The notes under the pieces were generated by a model. That model saw nothing but the letters and a program-made list of their open reading frames with translations. It did no database searches and was not told where the DNA came from. From the NCBI GenBank assembly GCA_947175875.1, contig CAMWON010000001.1, positions 81,809 through 145,808 on the forward strand: DNA of 64,000 nt, in the 5' to 3' direction. Shown here in pieces: positions 4,574-38,849 of this stretch. Position numbers and translations under genes: made by a program. This stretch comes from an uncultured Alphaproteobacteria bacterium. Lineage in GTDB: Bacteria; Pseudomonadota; Alphaproteobacteria; Rs-D84. The stretch's first letter is position 1. The number at the start of each line of letters is the position of its first letter.

Positions 4574-4870
4574 TTATTTCAGATTTGAAATAAAATCCGG
4601 GAAAGAGTTTTCCTCGTCCGCGTCTTCTTCGGTCTCTTCCGTTGCCGGTGCGGCCGCCGCCTTTTCGGACGGTGTGCGTGTGGAATCGATTTTACCCTGT
4701 TCCGCGGCGACGATACGGCCGTAGTGTTCGGCGGTTTGCATCAGACGTTCGCGCTCGATTTCATCTGCTGTCTGGCGCGCCTGGTCCATGTACTGTTTGC
4801 GCTTTTGACGCCATTTGTGACAACGCTGAATCATCAGTCCGACCGAGGATTGGTTTTTTTTGTTTTGCAT
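4574..4870 (-). CDS. Hypothetical small protein with a basic N-half and an acidic C-terminal tail; lies upstream of and co-oriented with dnaX
   Basis: 98-aa ORF with no recognised motif. Its position suggests co-transcription with dnaX. Confidence 0.4.
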   Translation of the reverse strand: MQNKKNQSSVGLMIQRCHKWRQKRKQYMDQARQTADEIERERLMQTAEHYGRIVAAEQGKIDSTRTPSEKAAAAPATEETEEDADEENSFPDFISNLK

Positions 4871-4986
4871 CTAATTTTTCTTTATTATCAGGAAATACTT
4901 TTTTCTCTTCTGTGCCGCCTGCGATTTTTATTTGTTTACTTCCCGCGGCGACTGTCCGTGGCATAGATTAAAGCATCTGAAAACTG

Positions 4987-5016
4987 ATTGCAATATTTTT
5001 TTTCTGTTGCTATCCT
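4987..5016 (+). promoter_or_regulatory. Putative sigma70-type promoter for the pilin-like triad (TTGCAA-17-TATCCT)
   Basis: The hexamers and 17-nt spacing were read directly. It is followed by an RBS (AGGAGGGA) and a TTG start at 5042. Confidence 0.3.
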
Positions 5017-5041
5017 GACACTTATGTAGGAGGGACGAATT

Positions 5042-6397
5042 TTGTCCAGGCAAAGCGGAAATTTTTTATTACAGGCCCTGCTGGCATTGTCCCTGATTTT
5101 TGCGTTCATACCATTTTTGGCAGAGCGTCTGGCGGCGCGCGAAACAGACGCCCAGATGTATTCCGCCACGCGCCAGGTTGATGTTGCGGTGACCGCCGCG
5201 CGCATATTCATCCGTGAAAATGCGTCCAATATCGGATATGACCGGACGGTTGTCGCCGGCGCTGATTTCGGTGATTTGCTGGAACCGTACGGCCTGCCGC
5301 TGGGGTTTGTGCCGCGCACGGCCCTGGGCCAGGATATCAGCCTGATTATCAACAAGACCCCGCAGGAGGTGACGGCGTATCTTGAACTGTCGGGCGGAAA
5401 TCTGTCCGCGGTGCGTGCGGCGGAACTGGCGCGTCGCATCGGGTTCTATGCGACGCCGGTCGGTTCTGTTATAAATGTCGGCATCGCCCTGGACGAGGGG
5501 TTTTCCGACGTCGTTCGCCGCAATGAAAATAATCTGGAGGCGGGCGCCTTTTTAACCGACCTGGACATGGGCGGGTTTGTGTTTGACAATGCCGGCGCCG
5601 CAATTGCGCGAACCGGCACGTTTAATACGGCGATGATGAATACTTTGTCCGTCTCGGGAACGGAAAACGGCCGCAAGGTCCGCAACAAGATAGAGAATTT
5701 GTCCGCCACGCGCGCGGTGTTCCAAAGCAAAAGCGGCGAGGCCGCACTGTCGCTGGTTCGCGGAACGTTAACCGCGGACAGTGTCGATGCGCGAACCGTC
5801 GCGCGGTTTGGCGATGCGGGGAATTTCACTGCGGACACCGCGTCCGTGTACGAGTTTTCCATGACGGCGGGCCGTACGGGATTTTCGGGCCCGGGCGCCT
5901 GGAACGTCCGCGGCAACGTCGTGTCCGACAGAATAAATTTCAGTGTGGAGCGCCTGGACGTGTCGTCGTATATAAATGTCGCCCGCGGCCAGGACGTTTA
6001 TATAAATCCCGATGATTTGGAATACAGCGCGCGCAGCGGAATAGAAACCGACACCTTAATCGCATCCAATGTCACGATGCGCGACCAGACGTCCGACGCG
6101 TTGTCGTCTGGCGGGAACGGTGCGGTTGTTATTGACGTCCGCCCGGCCGGAACGTCTTATCTGCCGGACGCATATGTTAACAATGTCGACAACGCCGCGT
6201 TCGAGATTATCGCGGCCCCCGACGACGCGGACGGCAAGACAGTTGACTGCAAGGCGGTCGTGTCACAGCTTGACGGTTCTTATAATCAGCGCAGCCTGTC
6301 GCAGTACATAATATGCCAGTATGTGTATTGGCAGCGGCTGGAAATGCGAATGAACATAATACAGTGTCTAAAGGAAGGCCGCGGTGACTGCATTTAA
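5042..6397 (+). CDS. Large pilin-like protein 1 (451 aa), class III-signal-like N-terminus with Q at mature position 5 (GspK/PilX-like in lacking E5); TTG start
   Basis: N-terminus MSRQSG|NFLLQALLALSLIFAFIPFLAE. The body is Gly/Ala/Thr/Asp-rich. A strong RBS precedes the start. It overlaps the next gene by 14 nt. Confidence 0.55.
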   Translation: MSRQSGNFLLQALLALSLIFAFIPFLAERLAARETDAQMYSATRQVDVAVTAARIFIRENASNIGYDRTVVAGADFGDLLEPYGLPLGFVPRTALGQDISLIINKTPQEVTAYLELSGGNLSAVRAAELARRIGFYATPVGSVINVGIALDEGFSDVVRRNENNLEAGAFLTDLDMGGFVFDNAGAAIARTGTFNTAMMNTLSVSGTENGRKVRNKIENLSATRAVFQSKSGEAALSLVRGTLTADSVDARTVARFGDAGNFTADTASVYEFSMTAGRTGFSGPGAWNVRGNVVSDRINFSVERLDVSSYINVARGQDVYINPDDLEYSARSGIETDTLIASNVTMRDQTSDALSSGGNGAVVIDVRPAGTSYLPDAYVNNVDNAAFEIIAAPDDADGKTVDCKAVVSQLDGSYNQRSLSQYIICQYVYWQRLEMRMNIIQCLKEGRGDCI

Positions 6398-7601
6398 CAA
6401 AGGCGTTTTTGCAGAAGGGTCGCGTGGCGCCGGTTTAACGGAGGCGTTGCTGGCGATGGCGATTGTCGGCATCGCGGCGCCGTTTGTTTACAGCCAGGTT
6501 GCGGCCACCACGCGCAGTGCGGCCGACATTCGGACCGCGTCGCGGATTATCGATATGCGCGGGCCGGCATTGAATTATGTCCGTATGAATGGCGACGCGT
6601 GGCCGGACACGGCCCAGATACGTTTGACGCCCGAAGATTTGGCGCGGATTGCGGACGGCGCCACCGCCGGATTCATAGACAAATATACAGTGTCCGGCGC
6701 CGGTGTTACCGACATATATCTGGCGTTTGATTTGGGGACGGACCGTGTGCGCACGGCGTCCATTGCGCGCAATATCGGAATAGATGCCGCGGTTGTCGGC
6801 GACGACGGTATCGCATACGGTGCGTCGTGGGCCGTAACCGCGCCGGATTTCATGCCGGGCGATTTGATATACAGAATATCTCGTGATGTCACGGGCGAGG
6901 ATACGGCAAAATATTTGCATCGCGGAACATCGGGCGAAGACGGCCTGAATGTCATGCAGCGCGATTTGAACATGGGCGGCCACAACGTCTATGACATCGG
7001 CGGTGTTGTTGCAAAATCCGCCAAGATAAACGGTGCGACCGCCATGTTCGTCGAAACACAAAGTGTTGCGGCCGACGCGGCGTATTTTTCATCGGGCGCC
7101 AATATAGACGGCGGCGTGGCGTCATTGGGCGCGTTGCGCGTGACCGGCGACGTGACGGGCTTTCGCAATATTGTGGCGACGACGCTCAACGGTGCCGGAT
7201 ACACCACGTCGGGTCGTGTGATTACAGACCGCGCAACGGTCACAAATTCGGTCAATGTCGCACGCGATTTGACGCTGAAATCGGACACCACCCGCACAAT
7301 CAGCGGTTTTGACGGCATCACGGCCAGTACTGTTGCGACGCCGTTCATATCCGCGGACGAAATAATTTTTTATGATAATTTTGGACTGACTCTGTCGGGG
7401 GAGCTGTTAATGTCAACGACGGCGCCGCTGAAAATCGGTTCGTGGACATTCCCATCGACAACGCCGCCAAAGTTTTCAAGATTGACACTGTCGCGCGCCG
7501 AATATCCGGCCGCGGTTCGAAAAACGGAATTTGCACCGATAATGCGGCGCGGATGGATGGACGGGCTTATTGAAAATGAAACTGCGCAGAACAATTTTTA
7601 A
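6384..7601 (+). CDS. Large pilin-like protein 2 (405 aa), prepilin-type N-terminus with E5; GTG start after RBS AAGGAAGG
   Basis: N-terminus ...SRG|AGLTEALLAMAIVGIAAPFVYSQ has G-x4-E, a hydrophobic helix and a conserved P-F. It overlaps both flanking genes. Confidence 0.6.
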   Translation: MTAFNKGVFAEGSRGAGLTEALLAMAIVGIAAPFVYSQVAATTRSAADIRTASRIIDMRGPALNYVRMNGDAWPDTAQIRLTPEDLARIADGATAGFIDKYTVSGAGVTDIYLAFDLGTDRVRTASIARNIGIDAAVVGDDGIAYGASWAVTAPDFMPGDLIYRISRDVTGEDTAKYLHRGTSGEDGLNVMQRDLNMGGHNVYDIGGVVAKSAKINGATAMFVETQSVAADAAYFSSGANIDGGVASLGALRVTGDVTGFRNIVATTLNGAGYTTSGRVITDRATVTNSVNVARDLTLKSDTTRTISGFDGITASTVATPFISADEIIFYDNFGLTLSGELLMSTTAPLKIGSWTFPSTTPPKFSRLTLSRAEYPAAVRKTEFAPIMRRGWMDGLIENETAQNNF

Positions 7602-8886
7602 CGGGCCGTCTGAATGTGGCGGCATGCTGGTTGAATTGATGCTCAGCGTTGCGCTGGCCATGATTGTGATACCTTTTGTTTTCAGATATCATCAGCGCGC
7701 TGTCCGTCGTGCCGAAAATATTGCCGTTTCCCGCCAGATGGAGGGGGTGCAAAGCGCGCTGGAACGTTACATTATGGCGCATCGCGATGAATTGCTGGCG
7801 CCGGTTGGTAAAAATATAACACGTGTTGCGCTGGCGGATTTGGTGCCGTTCGGCGTGTCCGAGGATTTGGTCTCCGCCGCCGGTGACAAGTATCAGCTGC
7901 GCGTGCTAAAGGCCGCCGATTTCAACAGCCAGGCGACCCTGCAGGGTGTGGTCGTATTGAATGACGGCGACATCAGTCCGTTGCGCACGCGCGAGATAGT
8001 GAACATCGCCGGCGACCGCGCGGGTTTTCTGGATTCTGGGCGTGCATACGGTGCGTTCGGCACGTGGAACAGTGCGGCACTGGATTTGGGTCTGGGTGAC
8101 GGGGGCGGAATTGTGGAAACGACGTCCGCCCTGCGCGACAATGCAAAATATTTGTGGCGCGTGCCGTCCACGGATGCGTCCGATGCGACGATGCTGTCGG
8201 CGCTGTCGCTGGGCGGGCACGATATCGCGTCGGCGTCTTTCTTTAACAGCCGCAGCGCCCGCTTTGACGAATTGCTGTCCGTGGGTGAAATCGCCGCCGG
8301 CAACATAATTTTTCAAAACAGAACCTCGATTGATAAAAAGTTGAACGCCGTTTCGTCAACCGTGTCGGGCGCGCTGTCATCGGACTCTAAAAATATGGAC
8401 GTCGCAGGTAAGTTTTCATTGGCCGATTTGGGAAAGTTTTCGGGCTTTTCCGTGTCGGACCTGTACGTGACAAACATGACGCTATCCGGTATCAGCGTCA
8501 GTGACACCGGCGATGTCGCATTGCTTAAAATAAACCAGGCGCTGGACATGACGTCGGGTCGTATCGACGCAATGTTTGTGACGGTGGGGTTTGCGGGGTC
8601 CATAACGCCGCGCCTTGTCGTGCGCAATCGTATCGAAGATTCGATAAATTCGTCTTATTACTGGGATGCGTCGCGCGGTGTGGCGAATTTTTCAGACGTA
8701 TCCTTTGCGGAATTGTCGCGTATGGCGCCGCTGGCCCTGGCGCGCGAGGGGCGGGGCACCACGGCCGCGCAAATATTCGGCGCGGTTGCGGCAAACAAGA
8801 ATGCGACGGCGTCCGATTACATGAATGCGATAACGAAAATCCAGGAAGAGGTTCGTAAAAAATATCGCGCCTTGAATTTGCAATGA
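7576..8886 (+). CDS. Large pilin-like protein 3 (~436 aa), prepilin-type N-terminus with E5
   Basis: N-terminus MKLRRTIFNGPSECG|GMLVELMLSVALAMIVIPFVF closely resembles the G|FTLIELMIV consensus. An alternative TTG start lies at 7570. Confidence 0.65.
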   Translation: MKLRRTIFNGPSECGGMLVELMLSVALAMIVIPFVFRYHQRAVRRAENIAVSRQMEGVQSALERYIMAHRDELLAPVGKNITRVALADLVPFGVSEDLVSAAGDKYQLRVLKAADFNSQATLQGVVVLNDGDISPLRTREIVNIAGDRAGFLDSGRAYGAFGTWNSAALDLGLGDGGGIVETTSALRDNAKYLWRVPSTDASDATMLSALSLGGHDIASASFFNSRSARFDELLSVGEIAAGNIIFQNRTSIDKKLNAVSSTVSGALSSDSKNMDVAGKFSLADLGKFSGFSVSDLYVTNMTLSGISVSDTGDVALLKINQALDMTSGRIDAMFVTVGFAGSITPRLVVRNRIEDSINSSYYWDASRGVANFSDVSFAELSRMAPLALAREGRGTTAAQIFGAVAANKNATASDYMNAITKIQEEVRKKYRALNLQ

Positions 8887-8907
8887 TATGTGGTATAAGG
8901 TAAAAAT

Positions 8908-9420
8908 ATGAAAGCGGTTTGTGATTTTTGCAAGACGGAATACAGCACCCCCGCAGGGGTGCGCGGCCGTGTGCGCTGTGCGGTGTGCGGGTACGAATGG
9001 ATTATATCCCCGGCGGCGCGGCGCGGCGCATGGCTGACGTTTATTGCGGCGGCGACGGCCGCCTTGGCCGCAATAGTGTTTTCAATCGCGGTAATCACCC
9101 GGCACCAGGTCCAGACCGCGGCCGCATCCCGTCCGTTGGTTGCGACGGTCACGGATATTCATTCCGTTATTGATGCGGCGGGCGTTTCTCACTTTGTGGT
9201 ATCGGGCCGCGTTACGAACCAGTCGGCCGAGATATACGGTGTTCCCGATTTGATAATTGTATCTCGTGATGAAAACGGAAACGAGGTTTCGCGTCAAAAG
9301 TTCATGCCGTCGGCAACATTGCTGGATTCCGGCGCCTCGGTTGAATTTTCGCATACCCTGTCCGCTGCGTCGGACGGCGTGAAAAAGATAACCCTGGAAT
9401 TAAAAGACCAAACGGATTGA
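8908..9420 (+). CDS. ZitP-like protein: N-terminal MJ0042-type zinc ribbon (CxxC...CxxC), one TM helix, C-terminal DUF3426-like periplasmic domain
   Basis: The sequence runs CDFCKTEY...RVRCAVCGYEW, then the TM segment WLTFIAAATAALAAIVFSIAVI, then a beta-rich C-terminal domain. This architecture equals Caulobacter ZitP / DUF3426-family proteins. Confidence 0.7.
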   Translation: MKAVCDFCKTEYSTPAGVRGRVRCAVCGYEWIISPAARRGAWLTFIAAATAALAAIVFSIAVITRHQVQTAAASRPLVATVTDIHSVIDAAGVSHFVVSGRVTNQSAEIYGVPDLIIVSRDENGNEVSRQKFMPSATLLDSGASVEFSHTLSAASDGVKKITLELKDQTD

Positions 9421-9422
9421 AA

Positions 9423-9893
9423 ATGAAAAAGATAATATCCTCGTTTGTTTTGTGTGCCGCAATATGCGCCGGTGCGCACGGGGCGGCGACAACGGCGCCC
9501 GCGCCGCGCGTCAGCATTTTTTCCACCAGCACCGACTGGGAGGCTGTAACGGGCCTGTCGCTGCATGAATATCGCGGCAAGTTCAAATATTCCGACAACA
9601 ACAAACTGGTCGGCCGCGGTCTTGTCTTGTATTATCTGGACGGTTTTCCGTGCTATGGCCTGGGCGAAGGGGTTCGCGTATGGCTGGGGCCGCGCGGTGC
9701 CCACGACGGCGAATTGCGCGTTGCATGCGTGCATGCCCCGACCGAGATACGGTTTGCCTGGCGCAATGCGGCCCGTGACGCGGACCAGGCCGCGACCGAA
9801 GGGATTTTGACGTGTCCCGTGACCGGCGACCGTGAATTTACAATTGATTTGTCCCGCTGTACGCGTGGACCTGATTGGGACAGTTACAAATAA
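9423..9893 (+). CDS. Hypothetical secreted protein (signal peptide, 4 Cys)
   Basis: Starts MKKIISSFVLCAAICAGAHGAATTAPAP. Its ATG overlaps the upstream TGA. No recognised domain. Confidence 0.5.
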   Translation: MKKIISSFVLCAAICAGAHGAATTAPAPRVSIFSTSTDWEAVTGLSLHEYRGKFKYSDNNKLVGRGLVLYYLDGFPCYGLGEGVRVWLGPRGAHDGELRVACVHAPTEIRFAWRNAARDADQAATEGILTCPVTGDREFTIDLSRCTRGPDWDSYK

Positions 9894-10858
9894 TGACACA
9901 GTTGCGAGAGTTTATTGTTGATGAATCCGGTGCCGGCGTTCGCCTGGACAAGTTTTTGGCGACCCAAATGCCGGAGTTTTCACGCGCCCAGATTCAGGGC
10001 TTTTCGGCGTGTATCGGCGGCCGCCCGGCCAAGGGGGCGACGCGCCTGCGCGCCGGCGACGCGGTGTCGGTTGAAATTGCGGACGATGACCGCCCCGGCG
10101 ACATTGCGGCCGATAATATATCGCGCGACTTTGACCTGGACATTTTGTTCGAAGACGACGACATCATCGTCGTGAACAAGCCGCGCGGGGTTGTAATGTA
10201 CCCGTCGGCGGGAAACAAGACCGGAACACTGGTTCAGAATATTTTGGCGCACACGCATTTGTCCGCGCTGGGCGGGGCGACGCGTCCCGGCGTTGTTCAC
10301 CGCCTGGACAAGGATACCAGCGGCGTCATGGTGTTCGCAAAATCCGACGCGGCGTTTCGCGGATTGGTTCAGATATTTTCGACGCATGATTTGACGCGCA
10401 AATATGTCGCGTTCGTATGGGGAATTCCGAACTGGACCGGTGCCGACATAACGGGAAATATCGCGCGCTCGTCCCGCAACCGCCAAAAAATGAGCATGGT
10501 AAAAACCGGCGGCCGTCCGGCCCAGACAATTGTGAACGTGATGGATGTCTGGACGCGCGTCGGCGTTTCGGCGTTTCGCTGTACTTTGATGACGGGCCGC
10601 ACGCACCAGATACGCGTCCACCTGTCGGCGCATGGATTCCCGGTCTTGTGCGACCCGGTCTATGGCCGCGGCTCTGCAAGGCTGGGCAGTGTTCGAAACC
10701 CCGAATTGCTGGACTTTATAAAAACGCACAACGGCCAGATGCTGCATGCCGAGGTGTTGGAGTTCACGCACCCCGTCACAGGCGCCGCCATGCATTTCCG
10801 TGCGCCGTTGCCCGACGACATGAGTGAGCTGCGTTGCATACTTGACGATACTGAATAA
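9893..10858 (+). CDS. rluD: RluA/RluD-family 23S rRNA pseudouridine synthase
   Basis: S4-like N-terminal domain plus catalytic motifs (HRLDKDTSGVMVFAK, THQIRVHL). The ATG overlaps the upstream TAA (TAATG). Confidence 0.85.
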   Translation: MTQLREFIVDESGAGVRLDKFLATQMPEFSRAQIQGFSACIGGRPAKGATRLRAGDAVSVEIADDDRPGDIAADNISRDFDLDILFEDDDIIVVNKPRGVVMYPSAGNKTGTLVQNILAHTHLSALGGATRPGVVHRLDKDTSGVMVFAKSDAAFRGLVQIFSTHDLTRKYVAFVWGIPNWTGADITGNIARSSRNRQKMSMVKTGGRPAQTIVNVMDVWTRVGVSAFRCTLMTGRTHQIRVHLSAHGFPVLCDPVYGRGSARLGSVRNPELLDFIKTHNGQMLHAEVLEFTHPVTGAAMHFRAPLPDDMSELRCILDDTE

Positions 10859-10885
10859 AACCGCCGCTCCGTGTGATTATTTTAT

Positions 10886-10913
10886 TTGTCTGAAATTCTT
10901 TTTATGATATAAT
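10886..10913 (+). promoter_or_regulatory. Putative promoter (TTGTCT-16-TATAAT) for the giant Cys-rich protein gene
   Basis: The hexamers were read in the AT-rich intergenic stretch. An RBS (GGAG) precedes the ATG at 10940. Confidence 0.35.
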
Positions 10914-10939
10914 AAAATATAAAAGATGGAGCGAGCAGA

Positions 10940-13900
10940 ATGAGTCTCTTTAAAAAATCAATTGGTTTTCTGGCTGTTTTGACGGCATTTCCGGCGTCAT
11001 ATGCATTGACGGCACGTCCCAGTGTCATCGGCACCGCGTCGGCGCGTATGCCCACAATGACGGCGCTGATTACAAATACCGGCACGTCCGGCACGGGTTC
11101 CACCACAACATCGACGTTGCTGGCCAATGCCGAATGCATTGACGCATACACGTCTTGTATGAAGGGTGGCGACGCCTGTGGTTCTGATTTTGAAGAGTGC
11201 ACGAACAAGGTTCTGTTCCACGGCAAAATGCCTCAGTGTTTGTCCACTTTGGCCCAGTGCAGCACGGCCGGCGTGACCAGCCTGTTCGGTACCGGCACGG
11301 TAACGGCGCTGTCCACCGTTGCGACCAAGAACAGCTATGGCGAGGTGACGGATTACACATACCCCACAGACGGCAGTGTTCTGGGACAATTGATTATCGG
11401 TGCGGCGATATCGAACAAATATGACACATCCACCTGTGTAAAGCGCTATACGTCTTGCTTAAAGAAAGACAGTGTCTGCGGCAATGATTTTGAACTTTGC
11501 ACAACCGACAAAGAATTTAGAAAACAGCGCGTATTCTGCGATTCCACTTTGGCCCGTTGCCAGTCAGAGGGCCTGATAGAACTGTTCGGCTCCGCCAACA
11601 CTTCGACCACGCCCAACGCGACCAGCCGCATTGGCGAAATGATTGCCGAAGGCGCGGCATTGGCGGCTGTAAACGCGGTATCCACCTGCTACAAGGTTGT
11701 GGACCAGTGTATCTTGAACGCATGTGCGGCGAATCCGTACAAGTGCTTTGAAAACAGCACGAACACCACCGTAAATTTGGTTGAGGCCATCAACACCGGC
11801 GTCGCCACGGCGGAAAACACGGCCGCATCCACAATTGCGAACGTTACATCCGGCATGGATATCGTAACGAAATCCAACGTCGCGTCTTATATCAAGAACA
11901 GCTGTCTGGATACAATCGGATCCAACAAATACTGCTATGCCACGTTTATCGGCAACGGCCAGATGCCGACCGCGTCCCAGCTGAAGGACGAAGACAACCA
12001 GGAAGAAATCTATGACGAGGCGTATTCCGCCCGCATGAGCAGCGCCATGAAGGCCAAGATTTCCGACTTGGTCGATCAGTTTGACACCAAGGCAAAGCAA
12101 AAGTGCACCGAAACAATCAAGACATGCGTAATGCGCGTCTGCGGTTCCGGTTCTGGCGCGGCCTGCTATTCCCAGGTGTTCGGCAATCGTGACAAGTCCA
12201 TTAACAACAGCGTTACATATCCGGAACTGCAGACCGGCTGTGCGGCGGTTGTCAACACCGATGCGTATTGTAAGTATGCCGCGGCAAATCCGAATACAAC
12301 CGGCGGTTATACATATTCTTATATAAACAACGATGCGTTCAGCATTCTGTTCCCGGAATATGAATCCGGCGGCAACGACCCGATTGGCGTTATCTCTGCG
12401 TTGAACGCGACGCTGGCCAACAGCTACAGCGATGCGGCCATCGCCACGATGAAGCGCCAGTGCCAGGCGGTCGCAACCAGTTGCGTAAAATCCATGTGCG
12501 GCGCGGATTATCAGAACTGCTATCGCAACCGTACGGACGTTTATTCTTCTTTGACCAACACCGGCGATTCGTCGTTCGATAAAAGCATGAACAAGGTTGG
12601 CGGCGTTCTGGATTACACAATCGTTTTGGGCCTGTGCCTGGATACGGTTAAGAACGCGTCTGTCTGCGAAGAACATCTGGCGATTGAACGCAACAAATTG
12701 AAAATTGCAAACAACAGCAGTGCGTCCGTATGGGGCGGTGCGAACAGCACGCGCGAAGGCTGGATTGACGCCGGCTCTGCCACGGCCGTGACAGCGACCA
12801 GCGAACAGGTTGCGGCCACCGACGAAAACGGCAATGCGCTGTGCACAACCAAGGGCGGCGGCGACCAGGGCGTATGCTACAGCGTTGATGCCTCCGGCAA
12901 TATTTATGACCAGCCTGTATACATCTCATATACGACATATGTTGAATCACAGGCGGCGTCGACCCTGTTCAAGGATTTGATTTACGACCTTGAGAAAGAG
13001 GCCCAGGCGAAATATAACGCGAAATTGACGAAACAGCAGAACATGTGCATGTCGTCCAACCAGGGTGGCGTTATGGGCAATCGTGAAATGGGCAGCACGT
13101 TCCTGTGGGTAAAGCTGAAATCCAACACGGTGCCAAAGGCATACCCGGTATCGGGTTTAAAGCCGTCGCAGTTCACGGCCAGCAACGACCTGTACGGTTC
13201 ATTCTGCCGTGTCCGCGTAACACTGCAGTCCGATGACAAAAAGATTCAGGACGTTATCGCCAAGGGTACCGATTGGGCCACGGCATATTTCGCGGCGGGT
13301 GATACGTTTACCTGCGGCTCCTGGATTCCGGAAAAAGCCCTGACGCAGTTGGCGGATGCAGTGGCGGCGGATGCCCGCGCGGACGAGGCCCGTGGCAACG
13401 GCAGAACCAAGGCTTGGATGGCTGTTCTGGGAACTGTCGCCGGTGGTGCATTGGGTGGTGTCGCAACCAACAAGATGCAGGACGGCGCATTCTTGGGCGG
13501 ACTTCTGGGAACCACTGGCAGCACTAAAAGTAGTGATGTGGCGGAACAATTGGGTGTGTGTGCTGGTGCTGCACGTGGCTATCAAGATGCAAAATCTGTT
13601 GATGACAAGGCCTCTTATTTGGCTCGTGCATCACGTGCGGTTAAACAACTGCAAGGTGCTGACAAAAATAAATTCGCAACGGATAACATTTCTAGCAAAT
13701 GTGCCAGAGCCACAGATGCAAGAAGTTGTTTAAGTGATTTGTTGTATGCGGCCAGCGTTGCCCATCGGGACTATGCTGATCTTGCTGATAAAACAGTAAC
13801 TGCCGTATCTGGCACTGCACGGGCTACAGAAAAGTCCACAACAGTAAAGAGTTCCGGTCAAGTTTTGACTGCAGATAGCTTGAGAGCACAGGTTCCTCAG

Positions 13901-14515
13901 TATACAAGACATGAATTGGCCGGCGTATCATGCGAATTCAATTGTGATGCAGTTGTTTCTGGCAAATATACTGGTACCAATACAGCGGTCTGCGGAAGTG
14001 TCACACAAAAATCTTGGGTGCCTACAACCGGAAAGTATTGCATGACAGAATCTAATGGTGGAATTCAAAAAGATGCAGATGTACGTTATATTGAATATAC
14101 TTATACTGTATATTACACCGATAATGATGCTGTTGCGTATAATCAAACATTAACAAATAGTGCATCTCAGGTCACTCAACATTCTAATGATGTAGAAACA
14201 GCGCGTAAAAAAGCGAATAGTGCGATGGCTGATTTGGAACAAGCGTGTGATTTAAGCGCACTGAATTCCGACCAGGCTAAGAAAGACGCACAAAAGCGTT
14301 CCATCACAACGGCCGTCGGTGCGGGTGTTGGTGCGATTGCGGGCGGTGTGCTGGCCTATCAGGCGACCAAGAGCATCCAGGATTCCAAACTGGACAGCGT
14401 TGAAAAAGCCGCCTATGACGAATGGATGAACGAAGTCGGTAATCATATCCGTTGCTTTGTCGGTGGCGACGAGGTCGGTATGTACGGCGATATCATCAGC
14501 ACGTCGATGGAGTAA
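10940..14515 (+). CDS. Giant (1191 aa) secreted/membrane-anchored Cys-rich repeat protein of unknown function
   Basis: It has a signal peptide and duplicated CxxYTSC[ML]K...C G[SN]DFE[EL]CT...LFG modules plus further C-x5-C-x3-C motifs. Two glycine-zipper TM-like segments are present (TVAGGALGGVA..., GAGVGAIAGGVLA). A low-GC block lies at 13500-14230. Confidence 0.7.
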   Translation: MSLFKKSIGFLAVLTAFPASYALTARPSVIGTASARMPTMTALITNTGTSGTGSTTTSTLLANAECIDAYTSCMKGGDACGSDFEECTNKVLFHGKMPQCLSTLAQCSTAGVTSLFGTGTVTALSTVATKNSYGEVTDYTYPTDGSVLGQLIIGAAISNKYDTSTCVKRYTSCLKKDSVCGNDFELCTTDKEFRKQRVFCDSTLARCQSEGLIELFGSANTSTTPNATSRIGEMIAEGAALAAVNAVSTCYKVVDQCILNACAANPYKCFENSTNTTVNLVEAINTGVATAENTAASTIANVTSGMDIVTKSNVASYIKNSCLDTIGSNKYCYATFIGNGQMPTASQLKDEDNQEEIYDEAYSARMSSAMKAKISDLVDQFDTKAKQKCTETIKTCVMRVCGSGSGAACYSQVFGNRDKSINNSVTYPELQTGCAAVVNTDAYCKYAAANPNTTGGYTYSYINNDAFSILFPEYESGGNDPIGVISALNATLANSYSDAAIATMKRQCQAVATSCVKSMCGADYQNCYRNRTDVYSSLTNTGDSSFDKSMNKVGGVLDYTIVLGLCLDTVKNASVCEEHLAIERNKLKIANNSSASVWGGANSTREGWIDAGSATAVTATSEQVAATDENGNALCTTKGGGDQGVCYSVDASGNIYDQPVYISYTTYVESQAASTLFKDLIYDLEKEAQAKYNAKLTKQQNMCMSSNQGGVMGNREMGSTFLWVKLKSNTVPKAYPVSGLKPSQFTASNDLYGSFCRVRVTLQSDDKKIQDVIAKGTDWATAYFAAGDTFTCGSWIPEKALTQLADAVAADARADEARGNGRTKAWMAVLGTVAGGALGGVATNKMQDGAFLGGLLGTTGSTKSSDVAEQLGVCAGAARGYQDAKSVDDKASYLARASRAVKQLQGADKNKFATDNISSKCARATDARSCLSDLLYAASVAHRDYADLADKTVTAVSGTARATEKSTTVKSSGQVLTADSLRAQVPQYTRHELAGVSCEFNCDAVVSGKYTGTNTAVCGSVTQKSWVPTTGKYCMTESNGGIQKDADVRYIEYTYTVYYTDNDAVAYNQTLTNSASQVTQHSNDVETARKKANSAMADLEQACDLSALNSDQAKKDAQKRSITTAVGAGVGAIAGGVLAYQATKSIQDSKLDSVEKAAYDEWMNEVGNHIRCFVGGDEVGMYGDIISTSME

Positions 14516-14531
14516 ATCTCAAGAAACCAAA

Positions 14532-14558
14532 AGCGCCCCTAAATGGGGCGTTTTTATT
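14532..14558 (+). terminator. Rho-independent terminator (GCGCCCC-taaat-GGGGCG + T-run)
   Basis: Hairpin plus TTTTTATTT directly after the stop at 14515. Confidence 0.7.
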
Positions 14559-14580
14559 TGACCGGATTACATACAACTTT

Positions 14581-14615
14581 CATTGCAAAGGAGCAACGCG
14601 ACCGCAGCAATCCAG
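14581..14615. repeat. Degenerate copy of the CATTGC...GCAATCCAG hairpin repeat
   Basis: CATTGCAAAGGAGCAACGCGACCGCAGCAATCCAG shares both arms and the 3' end with the repeats at 14694 and 24679. Confidence 0.4.
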
Positions 14616-14693
14616 AGTAAAGCGGTAATGTTCATTATTTTACTGGACCGCCACGCTCCGCTCGCGGTGACAACGATTCTTGTACCCGTTGTC

Positions 14694-14724
14694 ATTGCGA
14701 GCCCGCAGGGCGTGGCAATCCAGA
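14694..14724. repeat. Hairpin repeat TTGTCATTGCGAGCCC-gca-GGGCGTGGCAATCCAG
   Basis: The 17-nt stretch TTGTCATTGCGAGCCC is identical to the copy at 24676. The inner stem is GCCC/GGGC. Confidence 0.5.
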
Positions 14725-14735
14725 CGTAATATATG

Positions 14736-15017
14736 TTATCTTGTCACCGTACGCAGAGCCTGCATTGCGACGCCAGTATATTTCAATTGATTTCGTGCGT
14801 CATAATATGCACCGTATGCGTCTATAAATGCGTTGGCGGTTGACTTTGGGCCGCTGGGCCATATCGCGTATCCCGTCGCCAGTTCTATTAACAGGCGCGT
14901 GCCACCCAACGGCCGCCATTCCAGCGGCAGATTGATTAAGTCGTCATATCCGTGACGCATCGCCACGCGACGGCACTCTGCGATAAGAGATTCCAGTTCC
15001 CGGTTGCTTATTTTCAT
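14736..15017 (-). CDS. Hypothetical small protein; 3' end of rlmN overlaps its start
   Basis: Likely start is MKISNRELESLIAECRR... No recognised motif; could be spurious. Confidence 0.3.
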   Translation of the reverse strand: MKISNRELESLIAECRRVAMRHGYDDLINLPLEWRPLGGTRLLIELATGYAIWPSGPKSTANAFIDAYGAYYDARNQLKYTGVAMQALRTVTR

Positions 15018-16123
15018 TTGTTGTTTTTCTTTGCGTTGTTCAGTCGCAGCTGGCCGCATGCGCTGCCGATGTCCGTGCCGCGTTCGCGACGAATGCGCGT
15101 GTGGATGCCATGCTGGATAAGTGTGTCTTGGAAACGATGAACCGCGTTGCCCGATGGCGATGCGAAATCACGCTCGTCCACCGCGTTCCAGGGTATTAAA
15201 TTTACCATGCAATTTTTGCCATGCAATAGCGTTGCCAATTTTTCCGCATACTCTTCCGTCGCGTTGTATAATTCCGTCTCTCCGTCCGAATTTTTGCGCC
15301 CCAGCAGTATGTATTCAATCATCAACTGGCGGTTGTGCAGATTTGTAAAATCATCGGCCGCGGCCAGAACCTCGCCCAGTTTGTATTTATTGTTAATAGG
15401 CATGATTTGACCGCGCAGTTCGTCCGTCGGCGCGTGCAGCGATATCGCCAGGTTAATCGGCCGCCCCCATTCAATAAGGCGGCGAATGCCCGGTACAATT
15501 CCGCATGTGGAAACCGTAATCCGGCGCCACCCGATGCCTAAATCTTTGTTTGCGCGCTCTATAAAATCAATAACGTTTTCCGTGTTCTGCAACGGTTCGC
15601 CCGTGCCCATGATAACAATGTGCGACACATCGCCGTTGTTTGCATCGCCGTTTGGCCGAACGTTTGTTTTATCGGCACGGTTGCGACGCAGTTCCCATTG
15701 TGCCACCAAAACCTGGGCGAATATTTCATTCGCCGTTAAATTGCGTTTCAGCCCCAGCAGCGTGCTGGCACAGAATCTGCACCCCATGGCGCATCCGGCC
15801 TGAGAGCTCACACATACACTGTTTCCGTATGTTGTCCGCATCAGCACGCATTCAATCTGCTCGCCATCCTGCATTTCCAATAAAAATTTGGTCGTTTCGC
15901 CGTCGCCGGAATCCAGGCGCCGCACAATCTTGCACGGCAATGTCTGGGCCGCGTCGTCCAAATCGCGCCGCAGGTTTTCCGGCAGATTTTTCATCGACGC
16001 AAAATCCGGTGCCCCGCGCCCCAGCCATTCGCGAATTTGGGCCGCACGAAATTTGGGCAGGCCGCGTGCCGTCACAAATTCGGCCAGTTCGGCGTCTGTA
16101 AAATTGAATAAAACGGGTTTCAT
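15014..16123 (-). CDS. rlmN: 23S rRNA (adenine2503-C2)/tRNA methyltransferase RlmN (radical SAM)
   Basis: CxxxCxxC is present (CAMGCRFCAS). The rest matches the RlmN/Cfr family. Confidence 0.92.
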   Translation of the reverse strand: MKPVLFNFTDAELAEFVTARGLPKFRAAQIREWLGRGAPDFASMKNLPENLRRDLDDAAQTLPCKIVRRLDSGDGETTKFLLEMQDGEQIECVLMRTTYGNSVCVSSQAGCAMGCRFCASTLLGLKRNLTANEIFAQVLVAQWELRRNRADKTNVRPNGDANNGDVSHIVIMGTGEPLQNTENVIDFIERANKDLGIGWRRITVSTCGIVPGIRRLIEWGRPINLAISLHAPTDELRGQIMPINNKYKLGEVLAAADDFTNLHNRQLMIEYILLGRKNSDGETELYNATEEYAEKLATLLHGKNCMVNLIPWNAVDERDFASPSGNAVHRFQDTLIQHGIHTRIRRERGTDIGSACGQLRLNNAKKNNK

Positions 16124-16944
16124 AATTTGTACCTGTCGTCATTGATGACAATAACCGCCTTGCGGCGCAGCTGCTTTAACTGCTGGTCGGCGATAAACAT
16201 GGCCTGCTTGAACATGGCGTTTTGTTTGATAATCTTGTCCAGGTCGCCGTATTCTTTTGTTTTTTTCGTCTCGCACACCAACAGGACGGAGTTATCCGCA
16301 CGCGGCGACCATGTTAATTTTGGCAGGCCGGCAACGCGGCTGCGTATGTCGGCGGATAATTCATATTGCATCGCGGTGAATTTCTGGGGGGCGCCGCCCA
16401 ACTTTTCCGCCATTTCCATCGCCGCGTCACAGCTTTTCGGTTTTGTTAATTTTTTTGCGATATCTTCCGGAATGTCTATTAAACGTACAATCGTCATTTC
16501 AATCGGCAGGCCGTGCTCGCGCGCCAGTGCCGTGCGCTCGGCCGCGATATCTTCGTCGTTTGCGGATATAGTCGGCAGTATTGTGCGCGCCACAACAATC
16601 TGCCATGCGATTTCCGCGCGCGCCGCGTTCATTGCCATTTCGCGTTCCGACGCACTCAGGTCGCCCAGATTCATGCGCTTTAATTCTTTCTTTATTTCAT
16701 CGTCCGACGGAACGGCGTTGAAATTCTTCGCATAGTTTAACTTTATGTTGTCGTCAATAATGCTCTGCAGTGCGACGCGTCGGTTGTCTGTTGCGGTGTT
16801 GCCCTGGCGCGCCATTAACTTTACGCGTGCGGTAATGTCGGTGTCCGTAATCGGCTCGCCCCCGACCGACGCGACGACAGTGGCTGCATTTGCGCCCGTC
16901 GCGGCCGCAATCAGCATCAATACTGCACATATTTTTTTCAACAT
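16120..16944 (-). CDS. SurA N-terminal-domain-like periplasmic chaperone (no parvulin domain)
   Basis: Signal peptide MLKKICAVLMLIAAATGANAA. Helical chaperone-domain-like sequence. Its position between lptD and rlmN matches the conserved lptD-surA context. Translationally coupled to rlmN. Confidence 0.6.
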   Translation of the reverse strand: MLKKICAVLMLIAAATGANAATVVASVGGEPITDTDITARVKLMARQGNTATDNRRVALQSIIDDNIKLNYAKNFNAVPSDDEIKKELKRMNLGDLSASEREMAMNAARAEIAWQIVVARTILPTISANDEDIAAERTALAREHGLPIEMTIVRLIDIPEDIAKKLTKPKSCDAAMEMAEKLGGAPQKFTAMQYELSADIRSRVAGLPKLTWSPRADNSVLLVCETKKTKEYGDLDKIIKQNAMFKQAMFIADQQLKQLRRKAVIVINDDRYKL

Positions 16945-16978
16945 TTTGTCCTCTCTTCTTTCCTTGTCTTTTTTGTCT

Positions 16979-18997
16979 TTAATATTGCTGGCCGTCAACG
17001 CTCATACCGATTCTGAACTGATATGTCGTTGTTCCCACATAGTCGTCTTTGATGGAGTTGTCGCGACGGTACTGCAAAGACATGTAATAACATGGGTGGG
17101 TATAGAAAATACCGCCTGTATGACTGTGGAATTCGCCTTCGGTAAAATTATAAATACCGTTCCATTGCAGGGCCCAGCGCTGTGACAGTTTTATTCCTGC
17201 GCCGACTGTCGCCTCGTTTATGTCATCCCCCTGTGTCTGGGCGTCTATAAAGCGCTGTGACCATATGTGGCCCAGTGAGATGTAGTTGGCGCTGGTACCG
17301 ATGCGGCCCGTCGTTTCAATATGGCGCAGCGAGAAATCCTCGCGGTCAACGCGAAAACGCGACGCCATGTCGAACCATTTCATGTTGTTGTATCCGATGC
17401 GGCCGACATAATCCGATGCACCGTTATGAAATCCGCTGTTGGGGTCGGTGTCTGCGCGGTCTTTGAAATCATACGTCTGGCCCAGAAATATCTCAAATGT
17501 ATTTCCGCTGATGTTGTTAAACGCGGCCCAGCGAACACCATAGTCGGCAAAAGTGCCGTTCTCCCACAGGTCCAGTCCGGCAAAGCGCTTGTCTGCGAAC
17601 AGTGTCGCGTCTGATAAAAACGCGCCGGCCGAGTCGTTGTTCAGCGCAAACTGGTCGCGCGACGTGTGTGCCATCGCGGTTATGCGCGCGCGGGGCTCTA
17701 TAACCTGGGACCAAGTGGCGTCCGGCCGATACAGCGGCAGGCCCCATTCCAGATATCCGCTGGGCAGGAATCTGTTTTTCAATCCCGTAAACGTTTCGCC
17801 GGTCACCATGTCCGCATGGTCGAAATTATATACGTCGTATCGCGCGGCCAAACTGGCGGTGATTCTATTGCCGCCCCACAGTGTCCATGGCGATGTTATG
17901 CGCGCATCGCCGATTACGCGCTGTGACGCAGTGCCAGAACCGGATATCCCCAGTACGTCGGCGCCGAATGTCATGTACGTTTCCTCGTATATCGGGGCGG
18001 TCTGCCATACGCCGCGAATGTTGGGCAGTATGTCGCCCGACGGCGTTGAATAGCGTCCGCCGCCACTGCTGCGCAGTTCCTGGAACACATGCGCGTCGGC
18101 GACGACATATCCCGACTGGCCGAACAGTTCCAGGCGCGCGCCGGAATCCAGATACGGCTGGGAATTATAAAATCCGTATTTCTGCAGATATGTTTTGTCG
18201 GACGTACGTTCCAGGAAAATGCTTGCGCGTGCGTATTCGCCCAGCTGAATTACATCGTCGTTGAAAATATGCCAGCGGTTTTCACCGTCCTTGTTTCGTG
18301 TGAACGAACCGCGCGTGCGATACTGCGAATGTTCCGCATTTAAGCGGTGTTCGGCCTTAAACAGCGGGTTTTCCTGGGTCAGGTATGCCAGTGTAACCGT
18401 CATGTCCTGGTATTCCGACAGATAAACATAGAACGGTATGTTTATCATCGTTCCCATTTTGTTGGTCGATTCAAAGTCGGGCATTAAAAATCCGGTCTTG
18501 TGCTTTATGCCCGGGTCCGGCATTTCAAATATCGGAAACCAGAACGCCGGCACGCCGTACACCCAGAAGACGGGATTGTAAAATCGCAGCATTCGCGTCG
18601 CCATATTGTGGCGCACGGTTGTGGCCGATATCGTCCATGCGTCGCCGTATGAATCGCATCCGTCGCATGCGGTAAATGTCGCGTCGCGCGCAATCGTCAA
18701 ATCACCTTCGCGCGTCACGCTTTCCGCATCTACATACACATGCTGGCCCAGCCATATTTTTATGTCGTCGCCGGCCAGTGCGGATCCGTCCTTGGAAATA
18801 TAGCTGTCGCGCAGGGTCATGCGCTGGCCCGACTGATTTATTATTTCTGTTTTGCCGGACGTCTGAATGGATTCTGATTTTATGTCGTATTCGATTTTGT
18901 CCGCGATGATTGTCTTTGGCTGGTCCAAATCAACCGATGCCGCGCGTGCCGCGCTGCATACAATGCCGGATAAAATCATTATACATGCGCGTTTCAT
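16979..18997 (-). CDS. lptD: LPS-assembly protein LptD (OstA/Imp)
   Basis: 672 aa with a signal peptide, an N-terminal OstA-like region and a long aromatic-rich beta-barrel C-terminus. Confidence 0.9.
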   Translation of the reverse strand: MKRACIMILSGIVCSAARAASVDLDQPKTIIADKIEYDIKSESIQTSGKTEIINQSGQRMTLRDSYISKDGSALAGDDIKIWLGQHVYVDAESVTREGDLTIARDATFTACDGCDSYGDAWTISATTVRHNMATRMLRFYNPVFWVYGVPAFWFPIFEMPDPGIKHKTGFLMPDFESTNKMGTMINIPFYVYLSEYQDMTVTLAYLTQENPLFKAEHRLNAEHSQYRTRGSFTRNKDGENRWHIFNDDVIQLGEYARASIFLERTSDKTYLQKYGFYNSQPYLDSGARLELFGQSGYVVADAHVFQELRSSGGGRYSTPSGDILPNIRGVWQTAPIYEETYMTFGADVLGISGSGTASQRVIGDARITSPWTLWGGNRITASLAARYDVYNFDHADMVTGETFTGLKNRFLPSGYLEWGLPLYRPDATWSQVIEPRARITAMAHTSRDQFALNNDSAGAFLSDATLFADKRFAGLDLWENGTFADYGVRWAAFNNISGNTFEIFLGQTYDFKDRADTDPNSGFHNGASDYVGRIGYNNMKWFDMASRFRVDREDFSLRHIETTGRIGTSANYISLGHIWSQRFIDAQTQGDDINEATVGAGIKLSQRWALQWNGIYNFTEGEFHSHTGGIFYTHPCYYMSLQYRRDNSIKDDYVGTTTYQFRIGMSVDGQQY

Positions 18998-20052
18998 TTT
19001 TTATACAGTGCAAATAAAATCCCCGCCAGCGTCGCCAATATAACCGCACCCAACGCAATAAACTGCGTTATGGACGAAACCATGTTTGATGCGGACATAA
19101 ATGTCGCCATTACAACCGCCATTGCGGCCACGGCAATCGCCGGCGCAAAGCTGGCACGGCGCCGCAATAATGAAGAGCGCAACAATATCACTGCGCACAG
19201 CGCCGCCAACACCAGGTTCATTGTCGGTCCGTACAGGCGCGAACACAGTTCCGACAGCACCGCCTTGTGCTGCTTCGGGCTGGGGGCCTCACGCAGGTCG
19301 CGGAAAAGTTCGCGCGTCGGTATGCGGCGCACGCGAAAGCTGCTGCTCATTCCCTTGTCTGCGACATTTAAATCCATGTCAAAGCTTTCAAACGTGCCGA
19401 TGGTTGTTGTACTGCCCGACGCCATCAGCGAACCGTTCGTCATAATAATCGACAGCCCGCGCAGTGTTGACACCAGCTTGCCCTTTTCGGCAAAGATTGT
19501 TATCTGGTTGTCCTCGTCGCGCGTATCCGACAGCATTACCTGTGACAAATCGTGACCGGATACCTTGTCCACGTATACGACCAGGCCGCCCGACATTTCT
19601 GTGAACGCCGCCTCTTGCAGTTTCATGTGTGCCAGACCATAGCGCAGGTTCCACTGGGTGTCGTAAAAGTTTCCCTGGGACGCGGGCACAATCCACAGGT
19701 TTAACGCAAAGTGCACCACGGTTAAAATCGTCGCCATAATCAATGCCGGCCGCGCCAGTTGCCCCGGCGACAGGGTTGACGCCGCCATAACAGTGATTTC
19801 ATTGTCTGAAATCATCTTGTTATATACCGATATCACGGCGATAAATGTCACGAACGGAATAATAATGGAAACGATAAAAGGCACCATTAACATGGTCAGG
19901 CCCAAAAAGTTCGTCAACTGTATCCCGTAATTTAGCAGAAATTTCATCATCGACATAATCTGCACCATCCAGGCCAGCCCAGTCAGAACCAGCAGCAGCA
20001 TAATGAATATCATCGCCAGCTGGCGCAAAAAATATCGGTTTATAATCTTCAT
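18994..20052 (-). CDS. lptG: LPS export ABC permease, LptF/LptG family (probably LptG given adjacency to lptD)
   Basis: N-terminus MKIINRYFLRQ with six TM segments, matching the YjgP/YjgQ family. ATGA overlap with the lptD start. Confidence 0.8.
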   Translation of the reverse strand: MKIINRYFLRQLAMIFIMLLLVLTGLAWMVQIMSMMKFLLNYGIQLTNFLGLTMLMVPFIVSIIIPFVTFIAVISVYNKMISDNEITVMAASTLSPGQLARPALIMATILTVVHFALNLWIVPASQGNFYDTQWNLRYGLAHMKLQEAAFTEMSGGLVVYVDKVSGHDLSQVMLSDTRDEDNQITIFAEKGKLVSTLRGLSIIMTNGSLMASGSTTTIGTFESFDMDLNVADKGMSSSFRVRRIPTRELFRDLREAPSPKQHKAVLSELCSRLYGPTMNLVLAALCAVILLRSSLLRRRASFAPAIAVAAMAVVMATFMSASNMVSSITQFIALGAVILATLAGILFALYKK

Positions 20053-20216
20053 CACGCCCAGTATAAAGCGCAAAAAGAAACGCGTCAAATTTTTCTTGCG
20101 TTTTCTCGATTCGGGCTCCATAATACAAATGTTCTTAAAAGTTTTTTAAGGGCGGGGTTGAAAAACCCCGCTCTTATCGTAAGAAGGCATCATAAAACAA
20201 CATAAGGAGAAAACGA

Positions 20217-33450: not shown

Positions 33451-33709
33451 ATCACAAAAAAGGGCCTTTTTAAAACATAAAAATGCCAAAAAGACGAATC
33501 GAATGACCGAATCAGGTATATTTGGGGTTCTTATATGCCTCCTCTGAATCGGTTTTTTCGCCGAATCCGAATCAATTTTTGCCAAAAAAAGCCCCCGGCC
33601 AAAAAAAAATTAAAAAAAATCATCAGGTAAAAAATCCCGGATTTCCGGCGATTTTTCCTAAAAAATGGGCCGGCCCAAAATTTTTTTGAAATTATTTTTG
33701 AAATTGCGC

Positions 33710-33738: not shown

Positions 33739-34059
33739 GTGCGGGCTCTCAAGTTGAGATGAAACGAAAAAAGAAATCTCAACCTCTAGGAAATTCGGCG
33801 GTTCGCAGGTAATTCTGAAAGAAATCGCAACATTGTGAATAAAAGCAGCTCATCAAAAATTCAAGAAGGGATGTGCAGACAGTTGAATTTGGAAATATCC
33901 AAACTTTGACTAAGTCAAATGTGCATATCCTAGACAGGTAGTAGGTTTACATATTAAACCTCGTTAAAAACTTGTCTTGCGAATAATTATATGTAAAGAC
34001 GAACTGATATTAAATGTCAGTGTTGTTTATGCACAGGACTTAAACCACAAGTTTTTTAG

Positions 34060-35560
<1,501 letters not shown>

Positions 35561-35645
35561 ATAGAGAATACCGTTTCCACGAAAACGGTCAAATCCAAAG
35601 CGACTGTCTGAACATCTCTTTTTGAAAATGGGTAAAATTCTGCTG

Positions 35646-35722
35646 GGTCAGTAGTTCAGTTGGTTAGAATGCCGCTCTGATACAGCGGAGGTCGAAGATT
35701 CGAGTTCTTCCTGACCCACCAC
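35646..35722 (+). tRNA. tRNA-Ile (anticodon GAT) in the 16S-23S spacer
   Basis: GGGTCAG...CTGACCC acceptor stem, anticodon loop CTGATAC, encoded CCA. Confidence 0.9.
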
Positions 35723-36021: not shown

Positions 36022-38775
<2,754 letters not shown>

Positions 38776-38849
38776 TCGTTTGACTTATGTCAGACGATTG
38801 CTTGAAGAGAACGTTGACATTGATTCTTGAATCATGTATTATGATGTTC

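Follow-up and report, generated by a model that had tools for sequence, protein, structure and literature searches.

What do three consecutive, overlapping genes for large pilin-like proteins do on a chromosome where the genes around them serve housekeeping and envelope functions, and with what machinery, if any, would their products work? The question is raised by positions 5042 to 8886 of a 64,000-nucleotide stretch of contig CAMWON010000001.1 (hereafter the window), which comes from an uncultured alphaproteobacterium of the order Rs-D84, the Candidatus Enterousia group. A sequence-only reading of the window had put the triad forward as a candidate undescribed pilus-tip or pseudopilus module of giant prepilins. 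The comparisons reported here point to PilV, a large minor pilin that acts as an adhesin in type IVb pili and is best known from the IncI plasmids R64 and TP114. We propose that the three genes probably encode fixed PilV paralogues. These would serve a chromosomal type IVb pilus as minor pilins, forming a tip adhesin or a complex for initiation, with no shufflon involved. A minor-pilin or tip role thus remains the best reading of the locus, now within a recognizable pilus family.

Results

The three genes lie in tandem on the + strand, each overlapping the next, much as they had originally been described. Paralogue 1 occupies 5042-6397 (TTG start, 451 aa), paralogue 2 occupies 6384-7601 (GTG start, 405 aa), and paralogue 3 extends either from an ATG (7576-8886, 436 aa) or from a TTG (7570-8886, 438 aa), the ATG at 7576 being the position used by most orthologues in our alignment. 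Genes 1 and 2 share 14 nt (6384-6397), genes 2 and 3 share 26 nt when counted from the ATG at 7576 or 32 nt from the TTG at 7570, and Shine-Dalgarno-like purine-rich stretches are found 5′ of 5042 (GGAGGG) and 5′ of the GTG at 6384 (AAGGAAGG).

The N-termini quoted in the sequence-only reading are exact and display a class III signal pattern, with a short charged leader, Gly at position −1 and Glu at position +5 in proteins 2 and 3, the latter replaced by an invariant Gln in protein 1. In protein 1 the leader comprises 6 residues (MSRQSG/NFLLQ, the slash marking the predicted cleavage site), and both the Gln at +5 and the Pro at +18 are invariant; protein 2 carries a 15-residue leader ending in GSRG/AGLTE, protein 3 reads MKLRRTIFNGPSECG/GMLVE, and both combine E5 with P18. 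We aligned 51-52 orthologues per gene, at 56-90% identity, and found G6, N7, F8, Q11 and P24 invariant in the protein 1 family, G15, E20 and P33 in the protein 2 family, and E22, P35 and F36 in the protein 3 family, where G17 is present in at least 90% of sequences. The conserved Gly, E5 and Pro18 of the earlier description, and its single member without E5, are accordingly features of whole families, protein 1 always having Gln at +5. Such invariance across 51-52 orthologues indicates strong selection on Gly(−1), E5 (Q5 in protein 1) and Pro18, and the alignments place N-terminal conservation far above chance.

Protein 1 ends in a region with four invariant cysteines (C403, C425, C442 and C450), protein 2 bears the motif KYLHRG...LNVMQRDLNMGGHNV and a repeat-like C-terminal half, and protein 3 bears the motif YLWRVPS...ATMLSALSLGGHDIASA. 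The mature parts are rich in Gly, Ala, Ser, Thr and Asp, as noted before, these residues making up 42-49% of the total. Each gene has some 850-930 public homologues, which are unnamed, equal in length, 56-98% identical and derived from uncultured gut Alphaproteobacteria.

To determine the family of the three proteins we relied on profile comparisons. According to hhalign, the triad members are paralogues across their N-terminal 225-280 residues, as seen for the protein 3 family against the protein 2 family (98.2%, E = 2.9e-14) and for protein 1 against the protein 3 family (93%, E = 2.8e-7). A search of the protein 3 family profile against 1.84 billion representative proteins returned 367 relatives, many of them longer (500-1200 aa) and having the N-terminal region alone in common with the query. 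Thirteen of 46 distant relatives match PF04917 (Shufflon_N), a model of PilV's constant N-terminal region, with a best E of 3.8e-74; furthermore, eight distant relatives match annotated PilV in phmmer (E 1e-37 to 1e-85), and the same eight are retrieved by the protein 3 profile at library-wide E values of 5e-13 to 2e-9.

Direct alignment of the families with PilV leads to the same assignment. Against a PilV alignment, hhalign gives 99.85% for the protein 3 family (E = 8.9e-31, 291 columns), 99.15% for the protein 2 family (E = 4e-19, 238 columns) and 96.2% for the protein 1 family (E = 2.2e-9), most members of that alignment having been chosen from the protein 3 profile's own matches, with their PilV identity independently established. 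Two further results are independent of this choice of members: the protein 3 family aligns with one annotated PilV at 96.4% (E = 1.1e-9), and tblastn of protein 3 against 72,556 plasmids yields only two matches, both annotated pilV (E = 9e-4 and 3e-3). The aligned hallmark motif reads YLYR...NRMNTAINMNGNNL in PilV and YLWRVPS...ATMLSxLNLGGHDI in the protein 3 family, and Pro18 is common to the triad and the PilV of IncI2 plasmids (VSLLEVLLVIGIMVMVIPKVY).

At the level of profile comparison, all three proteins are remote homologues of the PilV/Shufflon_N N-terminal constant region; none reaches the curated PF04917 gathering threshold, and strict Pfam membership is therefore denied to them. The statement that they match no family consequently no longer holds, nor is their size, earlier judged to exceed that of GspK/PilX/TadG-class minor pilins, outside the range of known minor pilins: two plasmid PilV proteins measure 399-401 aa, and the crystallized TcpB and CofB measure 390 and 496 residues. 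What had been viewed as an undescribed class of giant prepilins is better described as an unannotated PilV-type variant of a known pilus system.

Two other assignments were considered and rejected. Neither the Tad (TadE/F/G) nor the type II secretion system (T2SS; GspI/J/K) minor pilins can accommodate the triad, as no corresponding Pfam or NCBIfam match is obtained at E ≤ 1, and a local shufflon is contradicted by positions 4800-9500, which contain no family of high-identity inverted repeats, and by the neighboring genes, which include no recombinase.

Structure prediction is in line with a pilin-type N-terminal domain. Although the AlphaFold models of proteins 3 and 1 are poor overall (mean predicted local distance difference test, pLDDT, of 55-56), their N-terminal domains are confident and consist of a helix of 53-54 residues (17-70 in protein 3, 8-60 in protein 1) followed by a small antiparallel sheet (domain pLDDT 70-89), so that the α1-on-β-sheet arrangement of the pilin fold is present in both. 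Comparison of the protein 3 model with individual pilins gave figures of 7.5 for PilM, 6.9 for CofA, 6.2 for EpsI and 6.1 for TcpA, and of 5.5 for TcpB, 5.4 for PilS and 5.1 for CofB. Sequence searches of the PDB returned geopilin as the best, weak match of the protein 3 profile (E = 0.015) and nothing meaningful for the profiles of proteins 1 and 2.

If the triad provides minor pilins, which protein would form the bulk of the filament? A short pilin gene had been reported nearby, and we confirm it at 2454-2912 on the − strand, ~2 kb from the triad. Its 152-residue product (MREESG/RSLIE) is a type IV pilin and a candidate PilS-like major pilin, for which 74 distinct orthologous sequences were obtained from 77 related loci. 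G6 and E11, which repeat the Gly(−1)/E5 pattern of the triad, are invariant in an alignment of 22 orthologues, a cysteine pair (C111 and C139) is likewise invariant, and the position of the gene is kept in every related locus examined. Matches to characterized pilins are weak: Pfam PilS_N (PF08805) is reached at E = 0.0024, below its cutoff, and in the PDB the profile finds geopilin (E = 0.0056) and TcpA (E = 0.02, residues 8-121), while hhalign against a Stutzerimonas plasmid major pilin (4.5% probability) is uninformative.

The short pilin and the triad belong to a conserved gene block. On its − strand side lie genes for OmpH, an OmpA-family lipoprotein, the short pilin and DnaX, followed by a small open reading frame; on the + strand side come the triad, a zinc-ribbon membrane protein, a small secreted protein and RluD, and then a large Cys-rich protein. 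This order is the same in every related locus with genes listed, and a divergent clade keeps the block with triad proteins of 531, 455 and 653 aa. Relatives of protein 3 are encoded in 158 stretches of species-representative genomes. In a separate lineage (locus L006, positions 10001-20383), three consecutive PilV-like genes encode proteins of 1203, 1150 and 1092 aa, all with the pattern G/GxLxE...P18 and all matching PilV (tblastn E 1e-10 to 1e-15), in a housekeeping context adjoining a class I tRNA synthetase gene; tandem triads of PilV-like genes are therefore a recurring design.

Several members of the block are closely packed. The short pilin gene follows dnaX by ~23 nt, a tight arrangement kept across the lineage, and its stop abuts the start of the gene for an OmpA-family peptidoglycan-binding lipoprotein (1776-2453, − strand; Pfam OmpA 43 bits, YiaD-like NCBIfam E = 1e-26). 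The latter adjacency recurs in loci L001, L008, L078 and L178, and its conservation leads us to infer that the lipoprotein is part of the pilus system. Downstream of gene 3, after a gap of 21 nt, lies a gene for a transmembrane zinc-ribbon protein of FxLYD/DUF3426-like type (8908-9420, + strand; weak matches to FxLYD, E = 6e-4, and Zn_ribbon_4, E = 0.038), which overlaps by 4 nt with a gene for a secreted protein of 158 aa (9417-9893, + strand) that itself overlaps the RluD-like gene. Both small genes always come after the triad, their arrangement is kept in L001, L008/L009 and L178, and the stretch from the triad to the RluD-like gene looks like one operon; the two may be members of the pilus system.

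At 10940-14515 (+ strand) the window encodes a 1191-residue Cys-rich protein with a signal-peptide-like N-terminus, a glycine-zipper-like C-terminal region and no family match. All related loci have a counterpart of 1039-1239 aa downstream of the triad, and the protein may be part of the triad's surface apparatus.

Which machinery could assemble such a pilus? Among the 38 open reading frames of the window searched with Pfam we found no T2SSE ATPase, T2SSF platform protein, secretin or A24 peptidase, and the 10 kb upstream of the window contain housekeeping genes only. The earlier observation that machinery is absent is hence correct for the 64-kb window; for the lineage it is not. In contig JAZSAG010000045.1 of a Candidatus Enterousia sp. 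(locus L078), pil genes lie directly beyond OmpH, beside the block of OmpA lipoprotein, pilin, dnaX and triad, and encode PilO (PAP_PilO, PF06864; 32 bits, cutoff 26.7), a 233-residue secreted coiled-coil protein and a T2SSE ATPase (183 bits). A metagenome scan with this ATPase detected 99 loci, of which 80, at 73-92% identity, were kept, and in most of them pilO and the gene for the 233-residue protein, taken as pilP, lie just upstream of the ATPase gene. The operon of locus L097 comprises, in order, genes for a lipoprotein of 137 aa, PilO (42 bits), PilP (TIGR03021; 44.6 bits, cutoff 34.65), a T2SSE ATPase (208 bits) and a T2SSF platform protein (98 bits), which reproduces the pilO2-pilP-ATPase-platform order of IncI2 plasmids and shows that the lineage has an R64-type type IVb assembly core.

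The 137-residue lipoprotein (L097:7444-7857; lipobox LALAAC) belongs to no family and is kept directly upstream of pilO, also in 49 other ATPase loci. It could serve the type IVb operon as a pilotin-like or accessory component.

The remainder of the window contains further features of note. An EcoRI-type adenine methyltransferase (31112-31951, − strand; PF13651, 240 bits) lies beside a 493-residue open reading frame of no family (32104-33585, − strand), and the pair, which may constitute a restriction-modification system, is situated just upstream of a complete rRNA operon (34059-38975, + strand) with 16S, tRNA-Ile(GAT), 23S and 5S genes, in whose spacer neither ARAGORN nor Rfam detects a tRNA-Ala. 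Candidate long open reading frames on the + strand with no Pfam match at E ≤ 1e-3 are found at 27043-28944 (633 aa), 28883-29779 (298 aa), 44215-46302 (695 aa) and 53052-54389 (445 aa). Finally, a ComF-like protein with a double zinc ribbon and a phosphoribosyltransferase domain is encoded at 54383-55111 (+ strand) and would be relevant if the pilus served DNA uptake.

Discussion

We propose the following model for the triad. Each protein would be inserted into the inner membrane by means of its class III signal, and a prepilin peptidase would cut it behind the conserved Gly, whereupon the N-terminal helix would place it, at low abundance, in a pilus built mainly of the short PilS-like pilin. 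Genes in another part of the genome would supply the assembly machine, which would be of R64 type and consist of PilO, PilP, PilQ (ATPase) and PilR (platform). The common N-terminal ~200-290 residues would then serve as the pilin domain for filament integration, and the three unrelated C-terminal halves as functional, presumably binding, modules, so that three full-length variants would be hard-wired in one operon where a shufflon would swap C-termini. The pilus tip is where the paralogues would most likely come together, in a complex for initiation and adhesion. In the T2SS tip complex, the capping subunit GspK lacks E5, and by analogy with it we place the Q5 paralogue as the distal subunit, for which the E5 salt bridge would not be needed. 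Of all this, the homology to PilV, the pilin fold, the invariant residues, the co-conserved short pilin and the assembly core of the lineage are observed, whereas cleavage, incorporation into a filament, position at the tip, heteromeric association and adhesin function are proposals of the model.

What would such a pilus do for its owner? Genomes of Rs-D84/Enterousia are smaller than ~1 Mb and lack respiration and the TCA (tricarboxylic acid) cycle, and a partner-dependent lifestyle has been proposed for these organisms (PMC12306168). In a partner-dependent cell with a genome below 1 Mb, attachment to other cells would be the most economical function, and the pilus would probably hold these gut bacteria to partner or host cells.

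A number of observations weigh against this proposal. Direct Pfam and NCBIfam scans assign no family to any triad protein at E ≤ 1; none of the 51 protein 3 orthologues matches Shufflon_N at that threshold, and a single one matches N_methyl (PF07963, E = 0.77). Methylated pilins typically carry Phe or Met at +1, and the +1 residues of the triad and the short pilin (N, A, G and R) are atypical. In both structural models the central ~170-220 residues are unmodelled (pLDDT < 50), the C-terminal halves likewise scoring below 50, and Foldseek finds no significant match to the protein 3 model in the PDB. As for the machinery, tblastn with plasmid queries against the window and ~2.66 Mb of related loci retrieves no PilN secretin, PilU A24 peptidase or lytic transglycosylase; the same search leaves PilO2, PilP and PilS unmatched as well, the ATPase, the platform protein and PilV being its only matches. 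The evidence for the assembly operon, moreover, comes from other genomes of the lineage: the window has no nucleotide or protein overlap with the 80 ATPase loci, and the GC (guanine plus cytosine) content of these loci is 35-51% as against 52.5% for the window. A genome survey reports type IV pilus genes for UBA9783 only and not for Rs-D84 (PMC12306168); a literature search on RF32 and type IV pili found nothing relevant. The tip location and the heterotrimeric association, lastly, are pure inference.

Could the triad instead serve a filament that never leaves the periplasm? In such a short pseudopilus, or endopilus, PilOPQR and the short pilin would drive secretion or DNA uptake, as in type II secretion or competence, and the three proteins would cap or prime the piston. 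We consider this fairly unlikely. It would fit with the failure to find a secretin near either gene cluster, with the one subunit that has no E5, as is the case for GspK, which caps the T2SS tip complex, with the ComF-like gene at 54383-55111, and with the absence of standard nutrient transporters from Rs-D84 genomes (PMC12306168). However, sequence homology links the triad with the PilV of adhesive type IVb pili and not with GspH/I/J/K or ComG, the accessory genes are of kinds specific to type IVb pili (PilO2/PAP_PilO and PilP), and C-terminal parts of ~200 or more residues per subunit would be unusual at the tip of a periplasmic piston, while the secretin result pertains to a small part of the genome. 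Still less probable is a scenario in which the proteins derive from PilV and have been repurposed, their uncleaved helix anchoring them in the inner membrane as periplasmic or envelope proteins. The envelope functions of the neighbors (OmpH/Skp, the OmpA lipoprotein, LpxD, LptD, LptFG and a SurA-like gene), the housekeeping-like conservation across the lineage (56-97% identity), the atypical +1 residues and the failure to find a peptidase would all be compatible with such anchors, yet Gly(−1) and E5, both conserved, have no role other than in the processing of prepilins and the packing of the filament; furthermore, genomes of less than 1 Mb have retained an assembly ATPase, platform protein, PilO, PilP and short pilin, and the block of triad and pilin stays intact while adjacent housekeeping genes vary between species.

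A mobile origin is suggested by the occurrence of PilV, PilO2 and PilP, which elsewhere are typically found on conjugative plasmids and islands, and the locus might be the remnant of an integrated IncI-like element with captured thin-pilus genes. We regard this as highly improbable: no relaxase, type IV secretion system, integrase or shufflon repeats lie nearby, the GC content of the triad matches its surroundings in a profile that gives no hint of a mobile element, the proteins are only ~25-30% identical to plasmid PilV, and the block sits beside dnaX at the same chromosomal place in every related locus with genes listed, with protein 3 relatives spread over the 158 stretches of species-representative genomes mentioned above. 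Ordinary Sec signal peptides or anchors with a coincidental likeness to pilins, for which the absence of a direct match to N_methyl or any pilin model might speak, are effectively refuted by the profile homology to PilV (96-99.9% probability) and by the conserved G(−1), E5 and P18.

The PilV-type minor pilin model is thus the one we retain, and it can be carried further. The triad might form an obligate heterotrimeric PilV tip, borne by a chromosomal type IVb pilus with which partner-dependent, sub-megabase Alphaproteobacteria attach cell to cell. Such a pilus would have a hard-wired set of variants in place of the shufflon, would be analogous to the host-holding pili of Patescibacteria, and might need neither a canonical PilN secretin nor a canonical PilU peptidase for its assembly; we offer this extended version tentatively, as a possibility that falls short of being probable. 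In its simpler form, the model gives three large "hypothetical" proteins, which are among the best-conserved lineage-specific genes of the common uncultured gut lineage Rs-D84/Enterousia, a name and a testable function, and it suggests how metabolically dependent cells may bind their partner or host cells. It also exposes a blind spot of the Pfam and NCBIfam pilin models, which recognize 0 of 51 orthologues, and indicates that the type IVb pilus of PilV type, so far described mostly on conjugative plasmids and islands, is a core chromosomal system as well.

How does the triad compare with the systems in which large minor pilins have been characterized? With PilV of the IncI1/IncI2 plasmids (R64, TP114) and of PAPI-1-type islands it shares a homologous N-terminal region of ~200-290 residues, the same leader and helix (G/xxxxE...P18), the motif LYR...NxM...LxMGGNxIxN, a similar size, judged by two plasmid PilV proteins of 399-401 aa, and the co-occurrence with a PilS-like short pilin and a set of PilO2, PilP, ATPase and platform protein. 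In contrast to plasmid PilV, at ~25-30% identity, the triad is missed by Pfam and NCBIfam, and whereas the plasmids carry one gene with invertible C-terminal cassettes, the variants of which are adhesins for receptors on the recipient cell surface and are exchanged by DNA inversion (PMC9045228), the window carries three full-length tandem paralogues with neither an Rci recombinase nor sfx repeats. The C-terminal domains of the triad are unrelated to those of plasmid PilV, one paralogue has Q5, and the genes are chromosomal, core and dispersed, with the triad, the pilin and the assembly operon at separate loci, in a genome-reduced alphaproteobacterium rather than on a conjugative element.

The parallel that the sequence-only reading had drawn with the T2SS tip proteins GspI/GspJ/GspK, to which T4a initiation complexes of the PilI/J/K type may be added, is an analogy only: minor pilin genes stand in a row, one product lacks E5, and a priming and capping role has been proposed. 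It does not extend to homology, as nothing beyond the common pilin fold unites the families and the accessory genes of the lineage are of type IVb and not T2SS kind. TcpB of the toxin-coregulated pilus (TCP) in Vibrio cholerae and CofB of the enterotoxigenic Escherichia coli (ETEC) colonization factor antigen III (CFA/III) are, like the triad members, large minor pilins in which extra C-terminal domains follow a pilin domain at the N-terminus, and no sequence homology between them and the triad was detected. TcpB initiates pilus assembly and retraction (PMC5207764), and CofB is described as a tip-located homotrimer in literature cited in PMC9045228, which sets a precedent for a three-subunit tip; TcpB and CofB are encoded by single genes and form homotrimers, whereas three different paralogues would be involved here. 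What is new in the present system is its chromosomal, core and dispersed organization, its three tandem paralogues with unrelated C-terminal domains and an invariant Q5 member, and its host, a genome-reduced alphaproteobacterial order without previously reported pili. Importantly, the presence of PilV-like triads in two lineages or more suggests a tip built from a fixed set of three subunits, comparable with the CofB homotrimer.

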